A stretch of 56,675 nucleotides of DNA. Source: Patescibacteria group bacterium. Its GTDB lineage: Bacteria > Patescibacteriota > Saccharimonadia > Saccharimonadales > Saccharimonadaceae. Of this stretch, positions 23,000 through 23,134 are shown in pieces. The stretch spans positions 1-56,675 of the forward strand of contig CAJYIP010000028.1 of assembly GCA_913775275.1 (NCBI GenBank), read 5' to 3'. Positions within the stretch are counted from its first letter, which is position 1. Every line of letters begins with the position of its first letter. The notes under the pieces are model-generated. The model was not told where the DNA came from. It saw nothing but the letters and a program-made list of their open reading frames with translations, and did not search any database. The position numbers and the translations under genes are program-made.

Positions 23000-23134
23000 A
23001 AACTAAAAACGACACCGCAAGGTGTCTTAATTCCATTCACAAATCGACTTTCGCCGAAAAGCTTATGCGGTGCCGTTTAGAACCGGCGAACCCACATGAA
23101 AATGGATATTCGATTTGTTATGGAATTAAGACCC
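23000..23134 (-). ncRNA. Putative structured cis-regulatory leader RNA of the R-M operon
   Basis: Nested inverted repeats 23024-36/23120-32, 23039-47/23110-18, 23050-56/23084-90; terminator-like hairpin 23011-26 with U-run; alternative 13-nt pairing 23066-78 with 23007-19. Confidence 0.65.

Follow-up and report, generated by a model that had tools for sequence, protein, structure and literature searches.

An uncatalogued, attenuator-like leader RNA family of Saccharibacteria that heads DNA-restriction and membrane-protein genes

The type II restriction–modification (R-M) operon of a 758-kb, 94%-complete saccharibacterial genome is preceded by a member of an uncatalogued family of folded RNAs, about 125 bases long, that belongs to Saccharibacteria and heads DNA-restriction and membrane-protein genes. 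The leader is real and conserved and, judged from its sequence, attenuator-like and a member of no listed family. We put at roughly 60% the probability that it works as a cis-acting transcription attenuator for accessory cargo genes, in which a free apical loop would capture the 3′ arm of a terminator and let polymerase read through.

In the window, by which we mean the whole 56,675-nt stretch of DNA that was analysed, the leader is on the minus strand, with tRNA-Leu(CAG) upstream of it and a two-gene methyltransferase–endonuclease operon downstream. The parts of this locus, from upstream to downstream, are as follows.

23203..23289, minus strand: tRNA-Leu(CAG); the leader and R-M insertion sits just behind it
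23171..23200, minus strand: hairpin and U-tract ending the tRNA gene, read from the sequence
23167-23162, minus strand: weak −35 candidate, overlapping a GANTC site at 23166-23170
23139..23147, minus strand: extended −10 promoter box, 6 nt before P1, from a consensus scan
23005..23132, minus strand: leader RNA of about 128 nt, running from the predicted +1 through the U-tract (family 113–158 nt, median 125)
23120..23132, minus strand: 5′ strand of P1, pairing with 23036-23024, 13 bp
23110..23118, minus strand: 5′ strand of P2, pairing with 23047-23039, 9 bp
23090..23107, minus strand: side hairpin P2a (23107-23102 with 23095-23090), predicted to keep the lock strand off the loop in the open state
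23092..23097, minus strand: lock strand of helix Px, able to pair with loop bases 23070-23065
23084..23090, minus strand: 5′ strand of P3, closing a 25-nt apical loop and pairing with 23056-23050, 7 bp
23066..23078, minus strand: apical-loop strand, forming a pseudoknot with the terminator loop, 3′ arm and first U's
23058..23065, minus strand: A-rich remainder of the apical loop, UAARCA in about half of the copies
23005..23026, minus strand: intrinsic terminator candidate, a 6-bp hairpin (23026-23011), one spacer base and U5 (U-tract 23009-23005)
22992..22998, minus strand: P5 strand behind the U-tract, predicted to pair with the terminator 3′ arm (23018-23012) after read-through
21911..22972, minus strand: N6-adenine DNA methyltransferase, CcrM/HinfI-like with a C-terminal RAMA domain, 353 aa (CcrM structure 6pbd, E 1.9e-137)
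21040..21918, minus strand: type II restriction endonuclease, PF09520, homologues named HpyAIV family, 292 aa

Most of this architecture had been proposed in a sequence-only reading, and its helices are as described there: the nested rod of P1, P2 and P3 checks at all three lengths, the loop strand 23078-23066 is complementary to 23019-23007 over 13 nt with one G-U pair, the −10 box precedes the rod, and the terminator precedes the methyltransferase ATG at 22972. Its claim that the rod's last bases overlap the terminator also stands, the last three bases of P1 being the first three of the terminator 5′ arm. The side hairpin P2a, the lock helix Px and the post-terminator helix P5 go beyond that reading. 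For the leader region the predicted fold has −59.2 kcal/mol (z −6.73), a value that none of 200 shuffles matched, and 201 of 100,000 base-shuffled rods produced a 13-bp loop-to-tail match. Both the −10 box and the terminator were picked up by one consensus scan, whose overall counts alone are not above chance (5 vs 2.9 and 2 vs 1.4). The A-rich remainder of the loop could possibly make A-minor contacts.

The methyltransferase and endonuclease genes are adjacent, as in a type II R-M operon, and overlap where the first ends and the second starts; no C gene precedes them. From what we know of its family, the specificity of the methyltransferase is presumably GANTC. GANTC is mildly under-represented in the genome, with a ratio of 0.845 that is the second lowest of 16 (GGNCC, 0.744). 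The leader is absent from 19 of 19 congener tRNA-Leu loci, in 5 of which spoU directly follows the tRNA, indicating that leader plus R-M genes are an insertion of about 2.1 kb; the same absence led us to reject a tie of the leader to the tRNA-Leu site. The hairpin and U-tract that end the tRNA gene would insulate the leader from upstream transcription. Elsewhere in the window, an OLD-like ATPase–Toprim protein (AAA_21 and OLD-like TOPRIM; PADLOC AriA/GajA-like) is encoded at 25525-27075 on the plus strand, right behind a second tRNA (25178-25259), and is likely another defence insertion. Two G5-domain proteins follow at 27861-28454 and 28879-29565, also on the plus strand; G5 also heads leader-controlled genes in viral contigs L021 and L022, and covariance model R2 finds no leader at the two G5 genes of the window.

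Several lines of comparative evidence support the fold. First, in an alignment (A4) of 70 sequences picked for diversity from about 125 and aligned with plain MAFFT, P1 and the loop/tail pseudoknot together have 95.9% of cells paired, and 15 of their 20 pairs change on both sides; 0 of 500 shuffles are as high, a control inflated by related sequences and uncorrected for kinship, and slid controls reach 35–53%. P1 alone has 99.2% of cells paired and two-sided changes at all 7 counted pairs. For the terminator hairpin, pairing stands at 92.9% and 3 of 6 pairs change on both sides; its bottom pair is lost in 22 of the 70 sequences, when P1 changes, and the pseudoknot is kept there. Covariation of the pseudoknot extends into the U-tract. 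The first sequence set was chosen with a pattern that fixes part of the helix; pseudoknot and terminator pairs were both absent from the model behind the wider search. Two exclusive 3′-end folds, as proposed, are supported by covarying pairs in P1 and the loop/tail helix and, less strongly, in the terminator.

Second, all 101 distinct copies (one of the 102 model hits contained N and was set aside) have the loop/tail duplex, with a median of 13 bp and a minimum of 9. Over 32 tail classes, cognate loop and tail pair at −22.6 kcal/mol on average vs −14.3 for swapped partners, and the cognate tail is the best partner for only 16 of the 32 loops; these nearest-neighbour energies, like those below, leave out pseudoknots and tertiary contacts. 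P3 takes 88 distinct sequences in the 101 copies, G-U pairs are common on the leader's RNA strand, and outside the pairing chain only a few A's and one G reach 90% conservation. G-U pairs together with a fixed promoter spacing disfavour a DNA-level cruciform or recombination site.

Third, the loop has a second partner. Px pairs the strand 5′ of P3 with the 3′ half of the apical loop, and over 48 loop classes cognate strands score −10.0 vs −6.8 for swapped ones, a difference of −3.2 that none of 10,000 permutations equalled and that shrinks to −0.4 with a reversed target. The cognate ranks among the top 3 in 17 of the 48 classes, and 59 of 101 copies have a Px that outdoes its shuffles (p≤0.05). 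Because Px locks the loop and is exclusive with P2a, P3 and the pseudoknot, the switch would be multi-layered, made of lock, antiterminator pseudoknot and terminator. Across the aligned copies, compensating changes show that P1, P3, the pseudoknot, the terminator hairpin and Px are each maintained; Px, pseudoknot and terminator, as paired in the predicted folds, are mutually exclusive in a chain. Behind the U-tract, a P5 strand able to take the tail is better than shuffles (p≤0.05) in 58 of 101 copies.

Folding predictions place the loop core in upstream pairing, as a locked nascent rod, at p>0.5 in 71 of 101 copies, and opening to the alternative state would cost a median of 5.9 kcal/mol. The window copy is predicted to be 68% locked at 71 nt and then only 18% locked, with an opening cost of 2.1, and thus to have a weak lock and be comparatively leaky. 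Three of the R-M leaders (L377–L379) lack the upstream lock, and in these a small internal hairpin is predicted to hide the loop, possibly a convergent lock.

The setting of the copies is equally regular. A −10 box, which lies outside the model used to find copies, is present in 101 of 101, with a TG extension in 70; it stands 6–7 nt before P1 in 98, placing the predicted transcription start at the first base of P1. Sense open reading frames (ORFs) begin within 110 nt in 113 of 118 copies (123 less 5 at contig ends), the nearest 16 nt behind the leader, which leaves little room for a second promoter. The leader thus occupies the position of an attenuator, between a promoter and a same-strand gene, and carries an intrinsic terminator and a mutually exclusive helix that are both under selection, the terminator being weak in the 22 sequences named above. 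A Shine–Dalgarno sequence with AUG or GUG occurs inside the rod in only 2 of 101 copies, and a ribosome-dependent attenuator with a leader peptide was dropped on that count. Two further ideas were rejected: that the tail specifically sequesters a ribosome site (cognate −5.0 vs swapped −5.1, n=78) and that an antisense promoter lies behind the terminator (29 reverse −10 boxes vs 34 expected).

The family is patchy, at 0 to 10 copies per genome. Covariance models find it in 53 of 151 genomes of the bacterial family, up to 10 copies each, a few of these hits, near 25 bits, possibly being bare terminators, and in 33 of 151 order genomes of Saccharimonadales; among 100 relatives, BLAST detects 11 with a copy. 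Of 151 genomes sampled across the phylum, 10 match, and outside the bacterial family only two (G253 and G230) hold what resemble whole elements; the remaining matches resemble bare terminators or chance. One genome (G029) forms a single row in alignments A1 and A3 and is counted once in copy counts, another (G093) is counted once in the order search, and our conclusions hold without them. A search of 185,579 species genomes with an exact pattern gave 62 loci, and the pattern also matched 115 metagenome stretches. Saccharibacteria or their subgroups are named in 54 of the 62 titles; the other 8 are 2 Oscillospiraceae, 2 Nomurabacteria and 4 unspecific, and at least one of the 8 is the same contig as one in a genome of the same bacterial family. 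On viral contigs, the model confirmed 5 of 29 loose-pattern loci and did not confirm the other 24, and blastn against annotated phages gave no leader match.

The source genome carries a second, divergent leader copy with a different loop/tail code (L124/L361; C3:5940-6068, minus strand). It precedes a 142-aa gene and a large serine integrase ending at tRNA-Gly, and a 1359-aa ORF with no PHROGs match lies upstream of it. Another genome (G043; L102, L128–L135) has ten copies, most heading paralogous secreted or surface proteins of 440–490 aa, two of them in tandem on one contig. In G253 (contig C2; L125 and L126) the family's terminator hairpin occurs alone, with A- and U-tract flanks, twice within 1.5 kb, and is possibly a source or relic of the leader module.

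In most cases the leader stands before a membrane or exclusion-like gene. Among first ORFs, 66 of 113 encode a hydrophobic segment close to the N terminus, vs 191 of 727 ORFs of the source genome, two sets with different length filters. Among 63 first genes behind pattern-found copies, Pfam assigns 8 to R-M (four families) and matches others to G5, DUF4352, Ltp, T4SS pilin, collagen and DUF805, with most unmatched; 52 further first genes include 2 methyltransferases. Superinfection-exclusion families in PHROGs are matched by 5 of 25 hand-picked first genes. On a phage contig (L357), leader and gene sit moron-like between portal and head-protease genes, and at L352, as at the second copy of the source genome, leader and gene precede a serine integrase ending at tRNA-Gly. 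Within 2.5 kb of the close subfamily, recombinases occur at 5 of 48 loci vs 2.6% of background windows and tRNAs at 13 of 48 vs 17.7%, too modest an enrichment for a universal link to integrative islands.

Other neighbours were recorded as well. A LOOT RNA (Rfam, 74 bits; L111:2749-2866, plus strand) lies about 500 nt behind a DUF4352 gene headed by a leader copy. IetA/IetS, OLD-type and type I R-M genes occur within 2.5 kb downstream of leaders L056, L064, L075, L055 and L047. On viral contig L332, the leader stands amid genes for RNA ligase, polynucleotide kinase, tRNA nucleotidyltransferase, endonuclease VII and a queuine tRNA-ribosyltransferase-like protein.

The sequence-only reading had tied the leader to R-M control, which holds for this operon and fails as a general rule. 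The endonuclease occurs in 4 of 400 other genomes of the bacterial family, and in all four, at different sites, the leader lies directly before the methyltransferase, making 5 of 5 operon copies with the window. The endonuclease query found no match in plasmids and none in 400 phylum genomes, and the methyltransferase query (E≤1e-80) found none in 400 order genomes. The five leaders fall into three variants with 50–56% identity between variants; at L376 and L377, the methyltransferase DNA is 90% identical and the leaders 52%. The window leader resembles one before a type III methyltransferase (L023, 82%) more than it does the other four R-M leaders (50–56%). Three variants on one operon imply that the leader was exchanged at least twice and that the operon stayed behind the leader family. 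This retention fits selection for leader control, or a leader that is the default cargo promoter of these islands. When 60 methyltransferase loci were selected by Pfam score, the leader was present at 5 and directly upstream at 3, two of the three being this operon, so a general role for the leader in R-M was rejected.

We propose the following course of events, in which start, termination and read-through are all predicted. Transcription would begin at the first base of P1. Px would form first and hide the loop (state A); with the loop hidden, the short hairpin would displace the last 3 bp of P1 and transcription would stop. Should the junction instead flip to P2a and P3 (state B) before polymerase reaches the U-tract, the loop would be exposed and pair with the emerging tail, the genes would be transcribed, and P5 would then take over the tail. 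Most likely, the balance between A and B depends on how fast the RNA folds and on some general factor of the cell, not on a metabolite pocket of its own. Conservation outside the pairing chain is thin and a leader peptide is lacking, which makes kinetics or such a factor the likeliest trigger. In that role the leader would throttle, to an adjustable degree, cargo whose full expression is risky. The 94%-complete genome yielded no Rho and encodes RNase III.

Some observations weigh against this attenuator. The reach of the pseudoknot into the U-tract exceeds what blocking a hairpin requires, and Px is not universal, as its counts of 59 of 101 copies and 17 of 48 classes attest. Further, 22 of 70 sequences lack the bottom pair of an already short terminator and still keep the pseudoknot, so that the pseudoknot could itself be the terminating or final fold.

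The best-placed alternative, which we nonetheless regard as unlikely, is an RNA that acts on its own kind: the leader, terminated or released by P5 within the read-through message, would pair in trans with nascent copies. Expression would then follow the build-up of leader since the element's entry, and the loop codes would be specificity groups, in the manner of phage P4 CI RNA or Gifsy-1 IsrK. The leader has an arrangement seen in P4 CI-, C4- and IsrK-type RNAs, a segment complementary to one site upstream and one downstream, as CI RNA has in seqA and seqC. The preference of the 32 tail classes for cognate partners, the different codes of the source genome's two copies and the presence of RNase III also suit it. 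We take P1 C4 to be a relative of this group. According to PMC4825925, CI and IsrK are leader-derived mobile-element RNAs that involve premature termination, and IsrK is a leader that ends at a terminator and turns on the read-through form of its message. The cargo, with exclusion-like proteins, phage morons and R-M, is of a kind for which entry timing matters (PMC12707154). However, loop and tail are paired in cis in both predicted end states, which leaves little free for action in trans, and variation where only two strands constrain each other is explained by neutral compensation, the cognate being best for just half of the loops. No sequence or model match links the leader to P4 CI, C4 or IsrK RNAs (Rfam C4-type models included), there is no excess of reverse −10 boxes behind the terminator, both partner sites lie inside the 125-nt unit, and the genes behind it are not antirepressor or replication genes. 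Taken furthest, this alternative describes a protein-free, ligand-free timer of mobile elements, in which a loop freed by P5 would unlock nascent copies in trans. Should that unlikely timer exist, restriction and exclusion genes would be expressed in a delayed or bistable manner after entry into a new cell, and the dozens of loop codes would be element-specific channels between which cargo genes swap.

It is also conceivable, if quite improbable, that the pseudoknot favours termination or seals a stable small RNA at its 3′ end; the loop would then serve as a distant 5′ arm of a G-C helix next to the U-tract, and Px would be the ON state. The pseudoknot is better kept than the hairpin and covaries into the U-tract, and such an RNA would be paired at both ends because P1 begins at the predicted +1. 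Against this, the hairpin is selected in its own right, as the two-sided changes at half of its pairs indicate; the same hairpin stands as a bare terminator in a distant genome (L125); and a loop closed by P3 would be unlikely to fit the polymerase exit channel.

Doubtful as well is a small-molecule or ion riboswitch, whose ligand would stabilize state B and the pseudoknot. Fluoride and ZTP riboswitches of the ON type share with the leader a 5′ position, an intrinsic terminator, a pseudoknot as alternative fold and a co-transcriptional decision; according to PMC11077080, the pseudoknot of a fluoride-type riboswitch competes with the terminator during transcription. The geometry of state B is constant, with an apical loop of 24–25 nt in 4 of 6 inspected folds, A-rich loop bases and one invariant G are conserved, state B is predicted to cost a median of 5.9 kcal/mol, and the regulon is varied. 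Yet the pairing chain explains nearly all conserved bases, and an internal-loop motif of the close subfamily is not retained in divergent copies. The leader also differs from fluoride and ZTP riboswitches in lacking an evident conserved pocket, in a pseudoknot of about 13 bp that takes both terminator 3′ arm and U-tract, in its own lock helix and at least 32 sequence classes, and in its cargo of defence and membrane genes. Rfam returned nothing over the element at E≤10 and nothing over 18 variant loci at E≤1, SAM, SAH, ZTP and fluoride models included, which agrees with the earlier impression that no known family is involved. The sensing of SAM or SAH suggested there fares badly: the cargo is not metabolic, most copies adjoin no methyltransferase, and no SAM or SAH family matches.

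Control dedicated to R-M, whether one of the two enzymes binds the leader or the leader serves them as an RNA partner, is highly improbable: all five operon copies have the leader and a GANTC site overlaps the −35 candidate in the window, but the five leaders are of three dissimilar variants, most family members have no R-M neighbours, and GANTC near −35 is missing from the other four copies. The latter count (1 of 5 R-M leaders) also removes a methylation-controlled promoter as a family trait, and the lack of an adjoining methyltransferase at most copies speaks against the earlier suggestion of a small RNA acting with the R-M proteins.

Comparison with other known systems places the leader in none of them. 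T-box leaders share the choice between terminator and antiterminator, and a short stretch of the loop resembles the T-box motif; the leader differs in having no Rfam match, in that this segment covaries with the tail and varies freely across classes, and in cargo that is not amino-acid related. 6S RNA was rejected because the genome has no RF00013 match and the leader is patchy rather than a single housekeeping copy. Like known R-M controls, the leader would limit or time type II R-M expression. A 2025 review (PMC12707154) lists among such controls promoter methylation, methyltransferase–repressor fusions, antisense transcription and C proteins; its main text has no occurrence of 'riboswitch', 'leader' or 'attenuation', and the operon described here differs in having no C gene before it. 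A literature search found no cis-regulatory RNA of Saccharibacteria, although the motif may be contained in the supplements of PMC11109978 or PMC5737381 or in the cluster tables of a 2026 preprint.

Gene control in Patescibacteria has hardly been described, and this leader family is common in Saccharimonadales, unusually layered and well-covarying. At 125 nt and with many natural variants, it is easy to test. If the leader attenuates, RNA attenuation would be added to the ways in which an R-M operon is dosed and established in a new host, and the leader's trigger would reveal what these host-dependent cells sense before they express defence and surface genes.
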